A stretch of DNA of 31,136 nucleotides from Candidatus Odinarchaeia archaeon (GTDB taxonomy: Archaea; Asgardarchaeota; Odinarchaeia; Odinarchaeales; Odinarchaeaceae). A model generated the notes under the pieces. It saw only the letters and a list, made by a program, of their open reading frames with translations. It was not told the origin of the DNA and made no database searches. Positions within the stretch are counted from its first letter, which is position 1; each line of letters starts with the position of its first letter. This document shows positions 2,133 through 29,573 of the stretch, piece after piece. The stretch lies in the NCBI GenBank assembly GCA_029856525.1, contig JAHQXC010000005.1, forward strand, positions 1 through 31,136, read 5' to 3'. The position numbers and the translations under genes are program-made.

Positions 2133-2950
2133 TATTTGAAATTTTCGCTTACAGTTTTATGCGAAACGCGTTAATCGCCGCGATTATGGTTAGCGTAACC
2201 TGCGGTGTTGTAGGCACGCTTATAGTTTTAAAGAAGCTTGTTTTCATGAGCGGCGGTATATCTCACTCCGCTTTCGGTGGGATAGGATTAGGCTACCTAC
2301 TTGGTTTAAACCCTGTGTTAGTTGCAATCCCCTTCAGCTTAGCCGCATCTCTCACCATAGGATTGATAGGTAGAAGAGCGCGTGTAAGCGAGGATGTCGC
2401 TATTGGAGTACTATGGGCTGTAGGTATGGCTTCAGGTATAATATTCGTGAATTTAACTCCAGGATACGCTCCCGACCTTTTCAGTTATCTTTTCGGTAGT
2501 ATTCTAACCGTTCCGGTTTTTGATTTAATGATCATGTTCATATTGAATATGGTGATTTTAACAGTATTCCTCCTCTTTCATAAAGAATTCTACGCGATAT
2601 CATTCGACGAGGAATTCGCAACCGCTTCCGGTGTCCCTGTGAAACCGTTATATTATGCTCTACTAGGTATGATAGGCCTCAGCGTTGTAATACTTATACG
2701 CGTAGTTGGAATCATACTCGTTATAGCTCTTTTAACAATCCCCACGGTGATCAGCATGAAATTCACTCATGGAATAATAAAACTAAGCTTTGCGTCGTCT
2801 ATTACAGGTTTAATATGCACGATCACAGGGTTATTTCTCTCATATATTTTTAATTTAACCTCCGGGGCTACTATTGTCATGGTTTTAGCCGCTGCCTTTT
2901 TAATCTCCACTCTGATTAAACGTTTAAGAGTCCCTAGAAAAAAGCTTTGA
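2129..2950 (+). CDS. znuB: Zn/Mn ABC transporter permease (ABC-3 family)
   Basis: GISHSAFGG and YLFGSIL motifs, multiple TM segments, ATGA overlap with the ATPase gene. Confidence 0.92.
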   Translation: MIFEIFAYSFMRNALIAAIMVSVTCGVVGTLIVLKKLVFMSGGISHSAFGGIGLGYLLGLNPVLVAIPFSLAASLTIGLIGRRARVSEDVAIGVLWAVGMASGIIFVNLTPGYAPDLFSYLFGSILTVPVFDLMIMFILNMVILTVFLLFHKEFYAISFDEEFATASGVPVKPLYYALLGMIGLSVVILIRVVGIILVIALLTIPTVISMKFTHGIIKLSFASSITGLICTITGLFLSYIFNLTSGATIVMVLAAAFLISTLIKRLRVPRKKL

Positions 2951-3027
2951 AACTAATAAATCTTATAAACCTTTTTTTATTTTAATCATCTAATTAACAT
3001 ATTTCTCTATTATTTGAGGGTTCAGTA

Positions 3028-4944
3028 TTGTCTGATGAAACCGGTGCTCTTAAAAGAGACATAGGCTGGTATGGTTCGTTTGCTATGGGCTACGCGGATG
3101 TAGGCGCCGACATCTACGTAGCGCTCGGTCTTGTCGCATTCTACGCTGCAGGAGGCTCTCCTATAGCGTTCGCTATAGCTGCAACAACCTATGTGTGCAC
3201 GGGTTTAGCTTACGCTGAGCTTGCCACCGCTTATCCTTATGCAGGCGGCGCTCACGTCTACGCTATGAAAGCGTCGAATGATCTTTTAGGTTTCATAGCC
3301 GGCTGGGCTGTGATGTTAGATTACACTGTGAACATCGCGCTTTTTTCTCTAGCCACTTCAGGCTACCTAACTTTCTTCTTCCCAGCTCTCAGATATCTCT
3401 CACTAGATCTTAGTGTAATAGGTTTACCTTTCTCCATACCATATTTAGGGCTGATATCTTTCACTATCGTCATCTTTCTTATAATAATAAATATTATAGG
3501 GATTAAAGAGTCATCCACTCTTAACGTGATCTTAGTTACATTGAATATTCTAGTTTTATCAATGATCTTTTTAATGGGTTTAATACTAGCTTTTAACATC
3601 GGTGTCTTAGTGAATCAAATATTTATTTTAGGTAATCCTGTTCAGCTACCGAATGTCTCTTATATTTTCAGCTCAGACTACCAGTTTCAAAACTTTCTTT
3701 ACGGCGTAACTATTGCGATGTCTTCTTTCATAGGAATAGAGTCTATAGCTCAAGCTGCTGAAGAAACTAAGAAACCTTATAAATGGATTCCGAGAGCTAA
3801 TAAGCTTTCCATTCTAGCTGTGATCGTATTCGCGCTAGGGCTTTCAACTATTGGAATGGGTGTTCTCCCATGGAATGTTTTAGGATATTCGAAAGCTGAT
3901 CCTATGGCTACGCTAGCCTCCGCTATCCCGGTTATCGGACAGTTCATAGCTCCTTTAGTCGCGGTCACAGGGTTCGCTATATGCCTTGTATCCACTAACA
4001 CCGGGGTTATAGGAGTTTCCAGAGTAGTCTACTCTATGAGTCGCTTCAACCTCTTCCCTAAATGGTTTTATACCACTCATAAAAATTTTAAGACTCCATA
4101 TAAAACTATCATCGTATTCGGTTTAATCGGCGGCTTTCTGACAATGACTGGAACCCTTGAATTAATCGCAGACTTATATAATTTCGGAGCTCTTCTCTCC
4201 TATTTAATAGTGAATATCTCCCTTATCATACTTAGAAATCAGGACCCAGGCGCATACAGGTCTTGGAAGATACCAGGGGAATTAAAAATTAAATGGCGTG
4301 GTAGGAAAATTATAATTCCACCTATAAGTGTTTTCGGCGCTTTTATGTGCGCGGCTATCTGGTCTCTTATCATCTTATATCATCCGGAGGGTCGTCTTCT
4401 AGGAGCCCTGTGGATTCTCATCGGACTCTTAGGGTACACTGTTTACCGTATTAAGAGAAAACTGCCTATTCTATCTAAGGAGACAGGTAAAACAATTAAG
4501 CCGAGCGGTTATAATATGCATGCGGTTATCCTACTTCGAACACCGGAAGACGAGGAGAAAATCGTGAATATTATTAAAGAAGGCTTAGATAAACGTTTCT
4601 CAATAACCCTTTTAACAATACTCGACCCTGAAGATTATGGTTTACCTCCTGATAAAGTTGACTCCATTCTCGAAATGAAGAAATTAGAGGATGAAGTCTA
4701 CTCTGAGCTCTCCTCAATCGCTAATAGGCTGCAAAAACTAGGCTACCAGGTGAGTGTTAAAATTAGAATAGGATCATTTAATCATATTGTTATAAGCGAG
4801 CTTGAATCAGAGGATAACGATACTTTAGTCTTCATAAAGCGGAGATTATTTAAAAAAGACTTTAAAAAAGACTTTGATGAGTCAACTATTTTATATGTGA
4901 CGAGTAAATATCCTGGTAAAGTAATGGTTTTAAGGAGAGATTGA
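3028..4944 (+). CDS. APC-superfamily amino acid permease with C-terminal soluble USP-like domain
   Basis: Many TM helices. APC motifs YAELATAYPYAGG, GIESIAQAAEE and SRVVYSMSR. Hydrophilic C-terminal alpha/beta domain of about 140 aa. TTG start. Confidence 0.85.
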   Translation: MSDETGALKRDIGWYGSFAMGYADVGADIYVALGLVAFYAAGGSPIAFAIAATTYVCTGLAYAELATAYPYAGGAHVYAMKASNDLLGFIAGWAVMLDYTVNIALFSLATSGYLTFFFPALRYLSLDLSVIGLPFSIPYLGLISFTIVIFLIIINIIGIKESSTLNVILVTLNILVLSMIFLMGLILAFNIGVLVNQIFILGNPVQLPNVSYIFSSDYQFQNFLYGVTIAMSSFIGIESIAQAAEETKKPYKWIPRANKLSILAVIVFALGLSTIGMGVLPWNVLGYSKADPMATLASAIPVIGQFIAPLVAVTGFAICLVSTNTGVIGVSRVVYSMSRFNLFPKWFYTTHKNFKTPYKTIIVFGLIGGFLTMTGTLELIADLYNFGALLSYLIVNISLIILRNQDPGAYRSWKIPGELKIKWRGRKIIIPPISVFGAFMCAAIWSLIILYHPEGRLLGALWILIGLLGYTVYRIKRKLPILSKETGKTIKPSGYNMHAVILLRTPEDEEKIVNIIKEGLDKRFSITLLTILDPEDYGLPPDKVDSILEMKKLEDEVYSELSSIANRLQKLGYQVSVKIRIGSFNHIVISELESEDNDTLVFIKRRLFKKDFKKDFDESTILYVTSKYPGKVMVLRRD

Positions 4945-23595: not shown

Positions 23596-23781
23596 ATGGT
23601 TGTTGACCCTGTTTGCGGAATGGAGTTCTCTGAAAAAGACGCTAAATTGAAATATACTTATGAAGGTAAAGTCTACTACTTCTGTTGTGAAATGTGCATG
23701 GAGAAATTTGTTAAAAACCCTGGTAAATACACTGGTTCAAAATCTGTAAGACGTAGCGGCTGCGGTTGCTGTGGTTTTTAA
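23596..23781 (+). CDS. YHS/TRASH-domain small metal-binding protein with Cys-rich tail
   Basis: VDPVCGM...[17 protein letters not shown]...P and C-terminal SGCGCCGF. Start moved to ATG 23596, which follows an AGGTGG SD. Confidence 0.85.
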
Positions 23782-24107: not shown

Positions 24108-24189
24108 TTGGTTTTCCTCTAATTTTTTTATGTTTTTATTTTTCTGGTAAGGTTTTTATATCAGAATATAACATTGTTATGTGATAAAT

Positions 24190-24426
24190 ATGAGTGAGCC
24201 CACCCCAAACTTGAAAGTCGACTGCACCGGCTTATACTGTCCTCAACCTGTTTTCATAACCAGAACAACTTTAGATGAAATGGCTTCAGGTGAGATACTA
24301 GAGGTGTTAGCGGACGACCCGGCTGCTGAATCTGATATTAAAGCTTTAGTGGAGGCTCTAGGCCACGAGTTACTCGCTTTCAAGAAGGAGGGCGGGGTTT
24401 TAAAATTTCTTATTCGTAAAAGGTGA
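24190..24426 (+). CDS. tusA: TusA/SirA-family sulfur carrier
   Basis: VDCTGLYCPQPV (CPxP with Cys), GEILEVLADDP...DI. ATG at 24190, alternative GTG at 24181. Confidence 0.9.
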   Translation: MSEPTPNLKVDCTGLYCPQPVFITRTTLDEMASGEILEVLADDPAAESDIKALVEALGHELLAFKKEGGVLKFLIRKR

Positions 24427-24432
24427 AATAAA

Positions 24433-24801
24433 GTGAATGGTGTTAAACATATTTTATACGTGCAGACAAGCGGCCCTGACACTCCTGAACGCCTCTACGC
24501 TCCCTTCATTTTAGCTGCCACAGCTAGAGCAATGGGTTATAATGCTACAATATATTTTCTGATAAAAGGTGTTGAAACAGTTAAGAAAGGTGTAGCTGAC
24601 AGAATTAAACTGGGCAGCTTCCCCTCTCTAAGAGAGGTGATGGATCAAGCTTTAAAAGCAGGTGTTAAAATTCAAGTCTGCGAGCAATCTTGCGCTCTCC
24701 TAGGTATACCTAGAGGCGAGTTCATCCCTGAAGCTGAGATTGTCGGAGCAGCTACTTTAAATAAGCTTTGCCTTGAAGCTGATGCGACCTTATTCTTCTA
24801 A
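24433..24801 (+). CDS. DsrE/DsrF-family sulfur-transfer protein
   Basis: APFILAATARAMG...IYFLIKGV...GVKIQVCEQSC...IVGAAT, with the family Cys conserved. Confidence 0.85.
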   Translation: MNGVKHILYVQTSGPDTPERLYAPFILAATARAMGYNATIYFLIKGVETVKKGVADRIKLGSFPSLREVMDQALKAGVKIQVCEQSCALLGIPRGEFIPEAEIVGAATLNKLCLEADATLFF

Positions 24802-24817
24802 AGACGGATGGTTTAAT

Positions 24818-26002
24818 ATGAGTAGAGTCTACTTAGATTACGCTGGAGCCAGTCCGGTGGATGAAAGAGTTTTAGAAGCGATGAAACCTTTTATTCTGAA
24901 ACCTGGGAATCCTTTAGCCCTACACGAGGAGGGTCAGCTTGCTAAGAGGAAGATCGAAGAGGCACGGCAGTATATCGCCCACCTTATAAACGCTGATAAC
25001 CCTGACGGTGTTATCTTCACAAGCGGGGCTACTGAATCTAATAATTTAGCTATTATAGGGATGGGTGAGCGTTTAAAAAATGAGGGTAGACATATCGTAA
25101 CCTCGAATATTGAGCATATATCTGTTATCAACTCTTTGAAGAAGCTTGAGAAGAACGGTTTCGAAGTAACTAGGGTTCCTGTAGACGAACAGGGTATTAT
25201 TCGCCTAGACTTATTAGAGGAGGCTGTTAGAGAGGATACTGTGTTGATTACGATTCAAGCCGCTAACTCGGAGATCGGTGTCATTCAACCTTTAGAGGAA
25301 ATAGGTCGTATAGCTGAACAGCATAATATTCTATTTCACTGTGATGCGACAGCAGGATTAGGGCAAATGCCTTTAGATGTTAAGAAAGCGAATATAAGCT
25401 TACTGACCATGTCCGCTAACAGTATTTACGGTCCTCAAGGCGTAGGAGCATTATACCTTGCTTCTAATGTCCGCCCGATTCCTCAGATTTTAGGCGGCGG
25501 CCAGCAGCGAGGCTTCAGATCAGGAACAGAGAATGTGGCCGGTATTATAGGGATGGGTGAAGCGGCTAAAATAGCTGCTCTTGAAATGAGAGGTGAATGG
25601 GAGCGGCTTAAATCTTTAAGAGACCGTCTTATCAGAGAAATCCCTGTAAGAGTTAGAGACGCTCATCTTAACGGTCACCCTGTGAAGAGAACACCGAATA
25701 ACGTGAATTTTAGAATAGACTATGTGGAAGGTGAATCGATTGTTTTAAGCTTGGATATTCTAGCAGGTATCGCTGTTTCAACAGGGGCTTCCTGCGCTAG
25801 CCTAACCTTGGAGCCCAGCCATGTTATTCTAGCTTTAGGTGTCCCCCCTGAGAAAGCTCAAGGTCTTCTCCAGGTTACGATGGGCCGCTTCACGTTAGAG
25901 GATGATGTGAACCGGCTTTTAGAAGCTCTTCCAAGTGTTGTAGATAGGCTTAGGAGAATGTCTCCTTTAACACCAGCTAACTATTTTGAAAAGGAGGGAT
26001 GA
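24818..26002 (+). CDS. iscS: IscS/NifS-family protein lacking the PLP-binding lysine
   Basis: YLDYAG, FTSGATESNN, EHISV, HCDAT, RSGTENV and STGASCAS...EPSHV are present, but SANSIYGPQG replaces SAHKxYGPKG. Start moved to ATG 24818. Confidence 0.92.
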   Translation: MSRVYLDYAGASPVDERVLEAMKPFILKPGNPLALHEEGQLAKRKIEEARQYIAHLINADNPDGVIFTSGATESNNLAIIGMGERLKNEGRHIVTSNIEHISVINSLKKLEKNGFEVTRVPVDEQGIIRLDLLEEAVREDTVLITIQAANSEIGVIQPLEEIGRIAEQHNILFHCDATAGLGQMPLDVKKANISLLTMSANSIYGPQGVGALYLASNVRPIPQILGGGQQRGFRSGTENVAGIIGMGEAAKIAALEMRGEWERLKSLRDRLIREIPVRVRDAHLNGHPVKRTPNNVNFRIDYVEGESIVLSLDILAGIAVSTGASCASLTLEPSHVILALGVPPEKAQGLLQVTMGRFTLEDDVNRLLEALPSVVDRLRRMSPLTPANYFEKEG

Positions 26003-26394
26003 ATATTTCTAAAACATATAGTAAGAAAGTGTTAGATCACTTCACTAACCCGAGGAATGTAGGCGTGTTAGATAACCCGGATGGTGTAGGAGTGGTCGGT
26101 AACCCTGTGTGCGGCGACTTAATGGAGATTCAGATTAAAGTGAAAGATGACGTGATAACAGATATTAGATTCAGAACATTCGGATGCGGTGCAGCTATCG
26201 CAACAAGCAGTATGATCACGGAGATGGCTAAAGGTATGCGGATCGATGAAGCTTTGAAATTAACTAGGAAGGATGTAGCAGAGGAGCTGGAAGGGTTACC
26301 GCCTATAAAAATGCATTGCTCGAATCTAGCCGCCGATGCTTTACACGCAGCTATAAAAGACTATCTTAAAAAAACAGGGAGGCAGGCTCCCTGA
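25999..26394 (+). CDS. iscU: IscU/NifU-N Fe-S cluster scaffold
   Basis: YSKKVLDHFTNPRNVG, CGD, FGCGAAIA and LPPIKMHC. ATGA overlap with iscS. Confidence 0.95.
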   Translation: MNISKTYSKKVLDHFTNPRNVGVLDNPDGVGVVGNPVCGDLMEIQIKVKDDVITDIRFRTFGCGAAIATSSMITEMAKGMRIDEALKLTRKDVAEELEGLPPIKMHCSNLAADALHAAIKDYLKKTGRQAP

Positions 26395-26683: not shown

Positions 26684-27451
26684 GTGTTTCATGTGATTCC
26701 GTTAGGTGTTTTTCTACTCGGCCCTGGAGGTGTCGGTAAAACTTCTCTTATGAAGTCTCTTATCGATTTAACTGTTGAAAATAGTATAAGCTGCGCTGCT
26801 GTCAACCTTGATCCAGGCTGCTCATCTCTTCCTTTTCAGACGATTTTCGATGCACGGGATATCGTAACCGTTGATGCTTTAATGGCTGAAGAGAAGGTTG
26901 GGCCTAACTATGCTATGATAGAAGCGTTTACACGTGTAATCGAGGAGCGGGTTAAAATCTTTAATATTATAGCTGAGCTTAAACCTGAAATCGTGTATTT
27001 TGACACACCTGGTCAGATGGAGGTTTTTCTATTTAACCGTGAGACTCCTGTATTCTTATCTGAAGTATCTAGTTGCGTGAAGCCGATCGGTGTTTTCATC
27101 ATGGATAATATGATGGTTAAAGATGCTTGTAAACTCGTTGTCACCGAGCTTCTCAGTTTAAGTTTTCAACTCCACTTAGAGATTCCGATGGTGACAGTTA
27201 TAAATAAAGTTGATTTAGGTGTCCCGGAGGATATAGATAAACTGGTTAAAGACACAGGATATCTGATTAGTAAAGTGGAGGCGGAGAAAACCGGTTTAGA
27301 AAAGGATTTAATACTCGGCTTAATACCGAGTCTTAGAGATGTTCGAGGTTCAACTAGAGTTGTTTACACTTCAACTCGAACAGGTTCAGGTATCCGAGAT
27401 TTATTTAATATTATTCATGAGGCTTTCTGCGCGTGCGGTGATCTCACTTAA
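26684..27451 (+). CDS. GPN-loop GTPase
   Basis: GPGGVGKT, NLDPG, GPN loop, DTPGQME, NKVD and C-terminal CACGDLT typical of archaeal members. Confidence 0.9.
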   Translation: MFHVIPLGVFLLGPGGVGKTSLMKSLIDLTVENSISCAAVNLDPGCSSLPFQTIFDARDIVTVDALMAEEKVGPNYAMIEAFTRVIEERVKIFNIIAELKPEIVYFDTPGQMEVFLFNRETPVFLSEVSSCVKPIGVFIMDNMMVKDACKLVVTELLSLSFQLHLEIPMVTVINKVDLGVPEDIDKLVKDTGYLISKVEAEKTGLEKDLILGLIPSLRDVRGSTRVVYTSTRTGSGIRDLFNIIHEAFCACGDLT

Positions 27452-27934
27452 AAGCGCATCATAATATGTGTCTTTGAAATTCTCGTACTCTTCTATTCCT
27501 ATTTCAAAGAGTTTATCGAAGTCGACTTCTTCTCCTACCCCTAAACCGGGGCAGTTTAACCCTATTATCGCTAGATGGAATACTTCCCCTTCCTCTGTTT
27601 TTCTAGTAGCAATTATTTTATACGGTCTTTTAGGTTTAACCTCCTCCGGTAAAACTAGAAAGGGGAAGATCCTGCATATTAGCGGTCTAAGTGTGTAAAC
27701 TGTGCATTTATTGTCTTTAAGAAAACAGCATGGGTATCTTTCTCTCACACCCATAAGAGAGTTAGTTGAATAGACGAGGTTTCCTTTAGCTTGGCGGGGT
27801 TGATGCTTTTTTAAAATTTCCTCTCTTATCCGCTCGTCTTCTGATAAGCGGTACACATCCGCGTAGCTTACTATAACCTCTGCTCCGCAGCATTTACCGC
27901 ATTTTTGACATGTAAACCTTATTTTCTCGCTCAC
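27401..27934 (-). CDS. YkgJ-family (CxxCxxCC) Zn/Fe-S cluster protein
   Basis: FTCQKCGKCC, CCFLKDNKCTVYTLRPLICRIFPF and NCPG. Confidence 0.85.
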   Translation of the reverse strand: MSEKIRFTCQKCGKCCGAEVIVSYADVYRLSEDERIREEILKKHQPRQAKGNLVYSTNSLMGVRERYPCCFLKDNKCTVYTLRPLICRIFPFLVLPEEVKPKRPYKIIATRKTEEGEVFHLAIIGLNCPGLGVGEEVDFDKLFEIGIEEYENFKDTYYDALLSEITARAESLMNNIK

Positions 27935-27936
27935 AG

Positions 27937-28326
27937 TTATTCTTCTCCGTTAACGCGTTTAACTGTTCTGGTCGCTATTAAATTCGCTCCTAAATCTAGG
28001 ATATTCTCTACGATGATTTCACCTCTTTTAACCGGGGCGTTGACTTGAAGATTTTTAATAATATTCATTACGTCGAATATTCTCTTTTTAGGTATAGGTT
28101 TATCTGTTCGAACACTTAGAAGCGGTAGATCACCGTTCACGACTCTAATTGAAGATGTAACTGTTCTAACCGGGTTCTCAACCTCTTCTCTAGCCCAGAA
28201 CTCTCCTCTAGCGCATTTAGCCCCTTCCACGCTGATCACGTTTACTGTTCCAAGCTCGTTTTCAGTATAATCCACGCTGATAGGGCATCCCTGGGGGCAG
28301 AGAATACATACTAGCTTCTTATTCAT
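27937..28326 (-). CDS. DUF1667 metal-binding small subunit
   Basis: VCILCPQGC, GAKCARG, NPVRTVTSSI and APVKRGEII. True start is ATG 28326, in an ATGA overlap with the upstream gene. Confidence 0.88.
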   Translation of the reverse strand: MNKKLVCILCPQGCPISVDYTENELGTVNVISVEGAKCARGEFWAREEVENPVRTVTSSIRVVNGDLPLLSVRTDKPIPKKRIFDVMNIIKNLQVNAPVKRGEIIVENILDLGANLIATRTVKRVNGEE

Positions 28327-29573
28327 TCGCAAACCTCCACGTGAATCTTCTCCGCGTTTAACGTGTATTCTCCTTTCAAATCAGCTTTCAACATTTCAGA
28401 CGGGGTTACTGAAGGGCAATGTTTCTGGATTATCTTATTTCCGTCTACTATAATATTTAGTGTTTTATTCTTTCCCGGTTTATAGACTCTGAAGAAAAGG
28501 CTTGTATCTAAGCCTGGTATTATTTTCTGGGGGACTGCGCTTCTCACATTCTCGCCGAGTGTGATAGTTATCTCTTTTCTATCAGGCTCAGGAAGCTGGT
28601 TTAAAGCATATTTAGCAGCCCATAACCCTGCTTTCCGCGCTTCCACAGTTACATAATCTACAAGATCGTTTACATGGAGTACATTACCGCATGCGAATAT
28701 TCCTTTAACAGATGTTTGAAGCATACTGTTAACCACAGGGCCCTGTGTTCTCGGATCTATCTCCACTCCAGCTTGACGGCTTAACTCGTTTTCCGGGATT
28801 AACCCAACTGAGAGTAGGACTGTGTCGCATGGAATTATCTTCTCAGTTCCAGGTATGGGTTTAAGATTTTCATCCACTTTAGCGATTTTAACCGCTTCCA
28901 CTCTATCTCTGCCAAGTATCTCTGTTACAGTGTGGCTTAGATATAAGGGTATGTTATAGTCTTCTAAGCATTGCACTACGTTTCTTCTTAGACCGTATGG
29001 GAAGGGCATGATTTCAACTACAGCTTGGATTTTCACGCCTTCAAGTGTTAGTCTTCTAGCCATTATAAGACCTACATCCCCTGACCCTAATATTACAGCG
29101 GTTCTCCCGATCATTAAATTCTGAAGGTTTATGAAGTTTTGAGCTAAGCCTGCGGTGTAAACTCCGCTAGGCCTGGAGCCGGCTATCTTAATAGCTCCTC
29201 TAGTTCTCTCCCTGCACCCCATCGCTAAAACAACTGCTTTAGCTTTAATCAAGTGATATCCGTTTTTATTAGCTACATATAATTTCTTGGAGGGTGTTAA
29301 CTCTAGTACCATGGAGTTAAGCATGTAATCTATTTTTAATTCTAAAAGTTTTTCAATGAATATCTCCGCGTATTCCGGTCCTGTTAAAGATTTATTGAAT
29401 AAAACTAAGCCGAATCCGTCGTGTATACACTGATTTAATATACCTCCGAGGCGGCTCCCCCTCTCTATTAAGAGTACTTTTTCAGCTCCGTTTTCTTTCG
29501 CTGAAATAGCTGCGGCTAAACCAGCCGGCCCTCCGCCTATAACCGCCACGTCGACTTCAATCTCGTTTAGCAT
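28323..29573 (-). CDS. NAD(P)/FAD-dependent oxidoreductase (pyridine nucleotide-disulfide family; NADH-oxidase-like partner subunit)
   Basis: GGGPAGLAAA, GGILNQCIHDGFG, LAMGCRERTRG, GSGDVGLIMARRL and FACGNVLHVNDLVD. Confidence 0.9.
   Translation of the reverse strand: MLNEIEVDVAVIGGGPAGLAAAISAKENGAEKVLLIERGSRLGGILNQCIHDGFGLVLFNKSLTGPEYAEIFIEKLLELKIDYMLNSMVLELTPSKKLYVANKNGYHLIKAKAVVLAMGCRERTRGAIKIAGSRPSGVYTAGLAQNFINLQNLMIGRTAVILGSGDVGLIMARRLTLEGVKIQAVVEIMPFPYGLRRNVVQCLEDYNIPLYLSHTVTEILGRDRVEAVKIAKVDENLKPIPGTEKIIPCDTVLLSVGLIPENELSRQAGVEIDPRTQGPVVNSMLQTSVKGIFACGNVLHVNDLVDYVTVEARKAGLWAAKYALNQLPEPDRKEITITLGENVRSAVPQKIIPGLDTSLFFRVYKPGKNKTLNIIVDGNKIIQKHCPSVTPSEMLKADLKGEYTLNAEKIHVEVCE

Follow-up and report, generated by a model that had tools for sequence, protein, structure and literature searches.

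We examined a 31,136-nucleotide stretch of DNA from Candidatus Odinarchaeia archaeon (NCBI GenBank assembly GCA_029856525.1, contig JAHQXC010000005.1, forward strand), referred to below as the window, which makes up contig C65 of a genome of 1.32 Mb (93% complete, 38% G+C). Our subject is a string of four genes in this window, encoding two small sulfur carriers (TusA and a DsrE-family protein), a relative of the cysteine desulfurase IscS that has lost the lysine forming the Schiff base with pyridoxal phosphate (PLP), and the iron–sulfur (Fe-S) scaffold IscU. The string and its surroundings are laid out as follows:

24153-24162, plus strand: TATA-like A/T-rich box (tttttatatc), 28-37 nt 5' of the tusA ATG
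24190-24426, plus strand: tusA, a 78-residue sulfur carrier with its active-site Cys in CPQP (PF01206, E 9.3e-24)
24433-24801, plus strand: dsrE, a 122-residue DsrE3-like sulfur carrier with a GTG start and a conserved Cys in VCEQS (PF02635, E 6.4e-18)
24818-26002, plus strand: iscS, a 394-residue IscS/NifS-fold protein lacking the PLP lysine (PF00266 Aminotran_5, E 1.5e-74, residues 4-367)
25999-26394, plus strand: iscU, a 131-residue Fe-S scaffold (PF01592, NifU_N, E 2e-51)

An earlier reading of this DNA (the sequence-only reading) had reported gaps of 6 and 16 bp upstream of iscS, and the coordinates agree: 6 bp separate the tusA stop (24426) from the dsrE GTG (24433), and 16 bp separate the dsrE stop (24801) from the iscS ATG (24818). 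Together with the 4 bp shared by the iscS stop and the iscU start (ATGA, 25999-26002), these short gaps point to a translationally coupled single operon. The box at 24153-24162, recognized from its letters alone, is a possible archaeal promoter with a short leader or none. All four genes are under purifying selection, with ratios of nonsynonymous to synonymous substitution (dN/dS), measured against a same-genus genome, of 0.055 for tusA, 0.10 for dsrE, 0.067 for iscS, and 0.022 for iscU.

Several pocket residues of the window IscS have changed together. The codons tcc gct aac agt (25412-25423) specify S199-A200-N201-S202, counting from the ATG at 24818; a HMMER alignment matches this segment to SSND in Archaeoglobus fulgidus IscS2 and to SAHK in an active desulfurase. 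Beyond the replacement of the Schiff-base lysine by Ser202 and of the preceding His by Asn201, the DAxQ motif reads DATA, with Ala179 in place of the PLP-contacting Gln, and the position of the substrate Arg holds Gln352; among 96 lysine-bearing sequences, His occupies the column of N201 in 96%, Gln that of A179 in 92%, and Arg that of Q352 in 92%. The mobile-loop Cys326 (tgc, 25793-25795) is retained within STGASC and is invariant in our alignment A1, and the PLP-stacking His100 and Asp176 are likewise kept. The account that the sequence-only reading had given of this gene (S-A-N-S where desulfurases have S-A/G-H-K, Lys replaced by Ser202, His by Asn, the DAxQ Gln by Ala, a retained Cys326, and an intact open reading frame) thus holds in every particular, as judged from the codons and the alignment. 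More broadly, seven columns that are conserved in the 96 lysine-bearing sequences are changed in 49 lysine-less ones. These changes, given in E. coli residue numbers (structure 1P3W), affect an ATT motif in the N-terminal region, the Met preceding NNE, Gln183 (to Ala), His205 (to Asn, in 49/49), Lys206 (to Asp, Ser, Gln, or Asn), and Arg354 (to Gln, Leu, or Glu).

The window IscS also scores below every curated NCBIfam desulfurase cut-off (NifS, 422.6 bits vs 530.75; IscS, 389.9 vs 643.2). It shares with the class I IscS/NifS desulfurases the class-V fold and the loop Cys, and departs from them in the PLP lysine, in the other PLP- and substrate-binding residues, and in its NCBIfam score. Because it is without the Schiff-base Lys, the preceding His, the PLP-contacting Gln, and the substrate Arg, we predict that it cannot draw sulfur from cysteine and is catalytically dead as a cysteine desulfurase. 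A sequencing error or a decaying gene is excluded, since the N-S pair persists at the same site in independent assemblies (whose proteins are 90, 89, 84, and 76% identical) and dN/dS is low; on this point, too, the sequence-only reading, which had argued against an error, was borne out.

The loss of the lysine is neither recent nor confined to this locus. The best Protein Data Bank match of the window IscS is A. fulgidus IscS2 (4EB5, E 8e-125, ~55% identity), and its nearest named relatives belong to Odinarchaeia (66% identity), followed by other Asgard lineages. The 120 closest homologs in a collection of 5.8 billion proteins all lack the catalytic lysine: the two residues at the His-Lys position are N-D in 108 of them, N-S in 4 (the group of the window), N-Q in 3 (Odinarchaeia), and N-E, N-N, or N-T in 4, with 1 sequence whose motif was not read by the pattern. 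The loss is therefore ancient and clade-wide. The sequence-only reading was right that the lysine is missing from the operon IscS, but the loss is not particular to this operon; the one lineage-specific feature is a Ser where the relatives usually have Asp. In the tree, this Ser202 is a derived state that arose inside the clade, in the lineage of the window; the Odinarchaeia relatives carry Gln.

To place the protein among its relatives, we assembled IscS loci from four sources (a one-genome-per-species scan that yielded 80 loci, the contigs of close homologs, 60 places in 151 same-phylum genomes, and the window itself), detecting TusA, DsrE, and IscU in them by iterated profile searches seeded with the window proteins. 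The resulting sample holds 149 IscS genes with genomic context, comprising 49 of the lysine-less clade (47 of them with a readable upstream region) and 100 others. In a tree of the 149 sequences, all 49 sequences of the A. fulgidus type group in a single clade to the exclusion of every other sequence (support 0.998), and the window IscS lies inside it. Since 42 members of this clade have Asp at the lysine position, against three with Ser, three with Gln, and one with Asn, Asp is typical of the A. fulgidus IscS2 type yet not required for it. The window protein has the membership in the S-x-N-x clade and the adjacent IscU that mark this type, with Ser instead of Asp. The likeness to A. fulgidus IscS that had been drawn earlier is accordingly one of type, resting on the 4EB5 match, the shared clade, the joint losses in the pocket, and the retained loop Cys.

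Within this clade, the sulfur carriers are a nearly constant companion. Of the 47 readable loci, 43 have a tusA gene immediately upstream in the same orientation, and in 29 dsrE stands between tusA and iscS, with 1 more locus in which the dsrE match overlaps the iscS gene; among the 100 IscS genes outside the clade, tusA was found upstream in none. DsrE is dispensable, being absent from 13 of the 43 cassettes. The association of lysine-less IscS homologs with tusA and dsrE, which the sequence-only reading had put forward as a check on its proposal, therefore extends throughout the clade and is essentially absent at lysine-bearing loci. Carriers of the cassette include several Asgard families, Bathyarchaeia (Bathyarchaeales), Thermoplasmata, a relative of the Archaeoglobales, and one Nitrospinota and two Actinomycetota genomes. 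The order tusA-dsrE-iscS-iscU is found in the Archaeoglobales relative, whose IscS is ~75% identical to 4EB5; it is to this relative that our gene-order comparison for the Archaeoglobales refers. Maintenance of the same gene order across very deep divergence, and across transfers into bacteria as well, is the usual signature of functional coupling.

Several observations temper the inference of coupling. The linkage is a single inherited trait of one clade and not a series of independent events; we therefore set aside a Fisher-type test of 43/47 vs 0/100, since a contingency test on what is one clade would mislead by overstating the linkage. No tusA is found near four clade members (L113, L116, L128, and L132). 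In L049 and L145, a tusA follows the iscU of a lysine-bearing IscS-IscU pair. No fused TusA/DsrE-IscS protein occurs among the relatives of the window IscS, so that the linkage goes without Rosetta-stone support: the 120 nearest relatives of normal length all measure 371-416 residues, and the long relatives (691-2000 residues) are NifS-SelD and NifS-molybdopterin-oxidoreductase fusions with at most 43% identity, none of which contains TusA or DsrE. A complex prediction for the window IscS with TusA, run with alignments A1 and A2, gave a score of 0.00, which counts neither for nor against contact.

A further point in the same direction comes from four other lysine-less IscS genes in Asgard genomes, which have IscU nearby and neither tusA nor dsrE:

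L146, 3461-4756, minus strand: IscS with D-[GA]-H-[H/R/V] where S-x-H-K is expected
L148, 3491-4777, plus strand: IscS of the same D-[GA]-H-[H/R/V] type
L149, 3457-4746, minus strand: IscS of the same D-[GA]-H-[H/R/V] type
L152, 3210-4400, plus strand: IscS with D-S-H-A at this position

The PLP-stacking His is altered as well in three of these four. In L146, L148, and L149, iscU follows the IscS gene, and the IscS protein has an acidic, His-rich C-terminal tail. Both types represent independent losses of the lysine, and we rejected the simple rule that any lysine loss brings TusA with it, as both have IscU and no tusA. The lysine-bearing locus L145 also touches on these types: at 2402-4714 on its minus strand, IscS is followed by iscU, a 114-residue TusA, and a DrsE_2-type protein, and the tree places this IscS with the D-x-H-x lysine-less type. 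Here, the carriers are joined to what is apparently an active IscS, on its downstream side.

Both carriers of the window are readily recognized. TusA reaches 83.5 bits against the PF01206 cut-off of 28.6, and among solved structures it is closest to E. coli TusA (1DCJ, and 3LVJ_C from the IscS-TusA complex; E 4e-13), with CPQP aligned on CPEP and the cysteines in register; it falls below the cut-off of the E. coli-type equivalog (66.5 vs 78 bits). Across 34 aligned cassette TusA sequences, D-x-x-G-x-x-C-P-x-P and ADDP are invariant. DsrE reaches 65.5 bits against the PF02635 cut-off of 22.7 and does not attain the DsrE2 equivalog (47.7 vs 210). Its best solved relative is 3MC3 (Sulfolobus solfataricus SSO1125, E 4e-17), with VCEQS aligned on VCVQS and the cysteines again in register, and we assign it by this closest structure and motif as a putative DsrE3-like carrier; SSO1125 is listed as DsrE3A, the archaeal thiosulfonate carrier type (PMC11094781). 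For TusA and DsrE3 proteins, loading from polysulfide or thiosulfate and onward transfer of the sulfur are both known (PMC11094781). The window proteins thus show a TusA domain with Cys-Pro-x-Pro and a DsrE fold with a conserved Cys. The motifs noted in the sequence-only reading, CPQP and CEQSC, are both present, but only the first Cys of the latter is conserved: the Cys of the VC-x-x-S motif occurs in 27 of 28 cassette DsrE sequences, and at the second position most relatives have Lys, Thr, or Ser. The same genome (G000) has a second sulfur-relay cluster at a contig end (C83, 728-2587), in which three small DsrE/F/H-like genes on the minus strand accompany a 148-residue DsrE-family (DsrE2-like) gene and a second tusA on the plus strand, beside an AsnC-type regulator; we regard this cluster as a better candidate than the operon for thiolation pathways.

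IscU adjoins most members of the clade and is the most conserved partner of the lysine-less IscS. As had been claimed, the window IscU retains all of its ligands, in GNPVCGD (Cys and Asp), FGCGA (Cys), and MHCSN (His-Cys), as aligned to the solved chains 7C8M and 4EB5_C. With its NifU_N domain, its three Cys, Asp, and His ligands, and a TIGR03419 score of 203.4 bits against a cut-off of 187.9, it qualifies as an IscU/NifU_N scaffold. Related cassettes elaborate on this core. In seven Asgard cassettes, a 796-residue protein composed of Pyr_redox_2, Pyr_redox_dim, rhodanese, TusA, and rhodanese domains, with a build like that of CoA-disulfide/persulfide reductases, is encoded directly 3' of iscS-iscU (L020, 2345-4735, plus strand; similar in L107, L108, L109, L111, L112, and L115). 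IscU itself is fused at its C terminus to a pyridine-nucleotide disulfide oxidoreductase in L114 (5410-6756, plus strand, 448 residues) and to a shorter Rossmann-like piece in proteins of ~265 residues (for example, L020, 1308-2111, plus strand), the latter being the common IscU form of Asgard cassettes. These reductase and rhodanese modules fit the handling of sulfane sulfur that needs to be reduced before it enters a cluster. A variant without iscU, found in L121 (1843-5517, minus strand; genome G012) and also in genome G023, consists of tusA, dsrE, iscS, a 120-residue protein (P0121) with three Cys and no Pfam match, and a SufS-type gene whose FSIHK and RSGRHC motifs keep Lys and Cys intact. 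In another locus (L128, 4722-6305, plus strand, 527 residues), the IscU gene is split by an intein with a LAGLIDADG homing-endonuclease domain.

The rest of the genome bears on whether such a module would operate without cysteine. A check for another desulfurase or a SUF system, which the sequence-only reading had suggested, turned up both SufC-SufB and, on contig C13, a SufS-type enzyme with F-S-G-H-K and R-A-G-Y-H-C-A, whose best PDB matches are cysteine desulfurases (E 3e-88). The C13 enzyme falls below the NCBI SufS cut-off (368 vs 475 bits), and its gene, which lies beside those for RPA and a Mut7-C RNase, is unlinked to the operon. SufS-type genes with Lys and Cys are also present in all five other near-complete cassette genomes that we checked, in two of which (G012 and G023) the gene lies in the cassette string. 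With such an enzyme in this genome and in five others, the description of the relay as cysteine-independent, which the sequence-only reading had offered, is not supported. The genome further encodes rhodanese proteins (contig C125 among their locations), one of which, by our reading of its sequence, is fused to a metallo-beta-lactamase-like region, as well as SepCysS (G000 contig C123, 628-1818, plus strand; TIGR02539, 438 bits vs a cut-off of 365), from which we predict that the organism is able to make Cys-tRNA by the tRNA-dependent route. Rhodaneses, SufC-SufB, and SepCysS form a set that recalls sulfide-using methanogens. A YeeE/YedE thiosulfate carrier was not found in this 93%-complete genome. 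The genome also holds a second, apparently dead desulfurase, a SufS-type paralog (contig C62, 7058-8275, plus strand; locus L002, 1432-2649; PF00266 E 3e-82, best PDB match 5B7S) in which F-S-G-C-I replaces F-S-G-H-K and R-S-G-M-Q-C-S replaces R-x-G-H-H-C-A; it sits between a Roadblock/LC7 gene and an endonuclease V gene and is kept in the same-genus genome G001 (L170).

The immediate neighborhood of the operon contains additional genes, some of them recurrent. Two genes before tusA lies a gene for a small YHS-domain protein with a Cys-rich tail, CGCCGF (23596-23781, plus strand; PF04945 E 4e-16), and a YHS gene is found upstream of the cassette in L009 as well; the gene immediately before tusA in L093, the Archaeoglobales-like locus, encodes an FTR1 iron permease. 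On the 3' side (26684-29573), iscU is followed by a GPN-loop GTPase gene (PF03029) and, on the opposite strand, by genes for a CxxCxxCC protein, a DUF1667 protein, and an FAD/NAD disulfide-oxidoreductase-type protein, an opposite-strand set that stays beside the cassette in L009, L010, and L012 (IscS identity 66-76%).

How might these pieces work together? We are inclined, by somewhat more than an even judgment, to view the operon as an Fe-S assembly module in which TusA feeds a noncatalytic IscS and IscU, and in which DsrE often helps without being essential. The window IscS would most likely play the part of A. fulgidus IscS2, giving IscU a structural partner whose loop Cys326 carries or ligates sulfur at the scaffold. 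Sulfane sulfur, as persulfide or thiosulfonate, would arrive on TusA, aided in most lineages by the DsrE3-like carrier, and be passed either to Cys326 or directly to IscU; reductive release would then supply the sulfide of the cluster. Physical contact between the proteins, transfer from TusA to IscS (the opposite of what happens in E. coli), and the sulfur source are what we infer here, and for that source, inorganic or low-molecular-weight sulfane sulfur loaded through DsrE or rhodaneses and the stand-alone SufS-type desulfurase of the same genome would be equal options.

Committing to the first of these options alone, such that environmental sulfide, polysulfide, or thiosulfate is loaded onto DsrE and TusA for IscS-IscU with no desulfurase taking part (the strict form of what the sequence-only reading had proposed), yields a proposal that is possible but doubtful. 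It would accord with the loss of pocket residues in a predicted dead IscS, the closeness of DsrE to the thiosulfonate carrier type of 3MC3 (PMC11094781), the rhodaneses on C125 and the persulfide-reductase-like fusions of related cassettes, the presence of SepCysS as in sulfide-using methanogens, and the precedent of sulfide-based Fe-S assembly established for SMS (PMC13066941, PMC7585200); the SufS-type enzymes described above, in-string in G012 and G023, and the lack of a detected YeeE-type carrier count against it. Committing instead to the second option gives a split, cysteine-dependent relay, which we entertain still more tentatively, in which the stand-alone SufS-type enzyme makes persulfide that TusA and DsrE accept and pass to IscS-IscU. 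Class II desulfurases need a dedicated acceptor protein (SufS-SufE/SufU), and this, the intact-looking gene on C13, and the string tusA-dsrE-iscS-(120 residues)-sufS-type in G012 and G023 would all suit such a relay, but in the genome of the window the SufS-type gene is on another contig and its product scores below the SufS cut-off, and linkage of SufS-type genes to the cassette is seen in one genome family only.

The remaining explanations depart further from sulfur delivery to IscU. Sulfur might flow outward, toward tRNA or cofactor thiolation, with the window IscS as a persulfide hub for TusA and DsrE and with IscU supplying Fe-S-dependent thiolases; the closest TusA is indeed that of E. 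coli, which takes sulfur from IscS (3LVJ), and DsrE belongs to the TusD homolog family. This we consider unlikely, given an IscS that is predicted to be unable to generate persulfide itself, a separate C83 cluster that suits thiolation better, and the standing of IscU as the most conserved partner. Distinctly unlikely, in our estimate, is a linkage without direct transfer, in which TusA and DsrE buffer or detoxify reactive sulfane sulfur, or act as regulators, beside an oxygen- or sulfur-sensitive scaffold: detoxification has been proposed for some DsrE groups (PMC11094781) and the cassette often loses DsrE, but the tight spacing and translational coupling, the place of tusA immediately upstream across phyla, and the invariant active-site cysteines argue against it. 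Finally, the fold and the retained PLP-stacking His100 and Asp176 might suggest that the window IscS is still an enzyme, working with noncovalent PLP or another cofactor; the clade-wide replacement of the equivalents of Lys, His205, Gln183, and Arg354 and the reported inactivity of the A. fulgidus ortholog (PMC7585200) make this highly improbable.

The proposed module of a noncatalytic IscS and IscU fed by TusA bears on an old difficulty. Archaeal IscS/IscU-type systems have been called the least studied (PMC13066941), and the A. fulgidus IscS-IscU pair has been a puzzle since its structures appeared, in that it assembles a cluster with no means to make sulfide. A carrier pair that travels with a dead IscS through archaea and several bacterial phyla provides concrete candidates for the sulfur donors, in our view the best available clue to where a dead IscS obtains its sulfur, and brings the question within reach of experiments on four small proteins. 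The same pair also bears on how anaerobes, Asgard archaea included, route sulfur while neither releasing toxic sulfide nor consuming cysteine. A SufS-type gene within some cassettes is a caution that cysteine may yet have a part in the answer. We advance only tentatively the broader idea of a widespread cysteine-free route, in which sulfane sulfur from polysulfide or thiosulfate would pass on DsrE3 and TusA to the loop Cys of a dead IscS and be reduced onto IscU. If true, it would explain how the crystallized A. fulgidus IscS2-IscU is fed and would add a further sulfur supply beside desulfurase-based and free-sulfide-based assembly.

The lysine-less IscS-IscU pair and TusA/DsrE relays were each already known. 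We found no paper linking TusA or DsrE with a lysine-less IscS in the open full-text literature, subscription papers lying outside the search; the one paper that mentions all of these subjects of the search deals with Fervidobacterium SUF. The cassette is a real, conserved variant of a known system whose link is undescribed in that open literature. What the window contributes is the Ser variant, the caveat that the linkage belongs to a single clade, the independent lysine-less types that lack carriers, and the SufS-type genes that weaken the claim of cysteine independence.

Of the characterized systems, A. fulgidus IscS2-IscU (4EB5, 4EB7, 4HVK, and 4R5F, the last a D199K variant) is the closest, sharing with the window the clade, fold, S-x-N-x, DATA, loop Cys, and adjacent IscU, and differing in Asp199 where the window has Ser202. 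A. fulgidus IscS2 is reported to be without desulfurase activity, owing to the Asp at the lysine position, and to contribute its Cys to the ligation of the [2Fe-2S] cluster on IscU (PMC7585200, PMC13066941); neighboring carriers go unmentioned in the published work on this pair as it is quoted in open papers. The E. coli IscS-TusA-TusBCD relay (3LVJ) is built of proteins homologous to those here (IscS, TusA, and the DsrE/TusD family), and their active cysteines are the same; there, however, IscS is the active desulfurase and starts a sulfur chain that runs by way of TusA to TusD and ends in tRNA thiolation. Since the window IscS is predicted to be inactive and unable to make persulfide, any sulfur flow in this operon would have to begin elsewhere, unlike in E. 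coli.

The DsrE3A/TusA cascades of sulfur oxidizers (Metallosphaera, sHdr; PMC11094781) show the same pairing of a DsrE3-like carrier with TusA, and inorganic loading is known for them; those cascades feed dissimilatory sulfur oxidation (sHdr, rDsr), whereas the partner in the window operon is an Fe-S scaffold and no such genes flank it. MIS (MisS-MisU) and SMS (SmsCB) likewise have a two-gene IscS/IscU-like core without chaperones (PMC13066941), the genome of the window having SufC-SufB in addition, and for SMS the use of sulfide in place of cysteine is established (PMC13066941). MIS has an active desulfurase and, by definition, no carriers, whereas the window cassette combines a predicted dead IscS with two carrier genes in the operon and so falls outside that minimal system. 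A further parallel is IscS1 of Methanosarcina acetivorans, which is reported to be without the catalytic lysine and has been suggested to act like the A. fulgidus IscS (PMC7585200).

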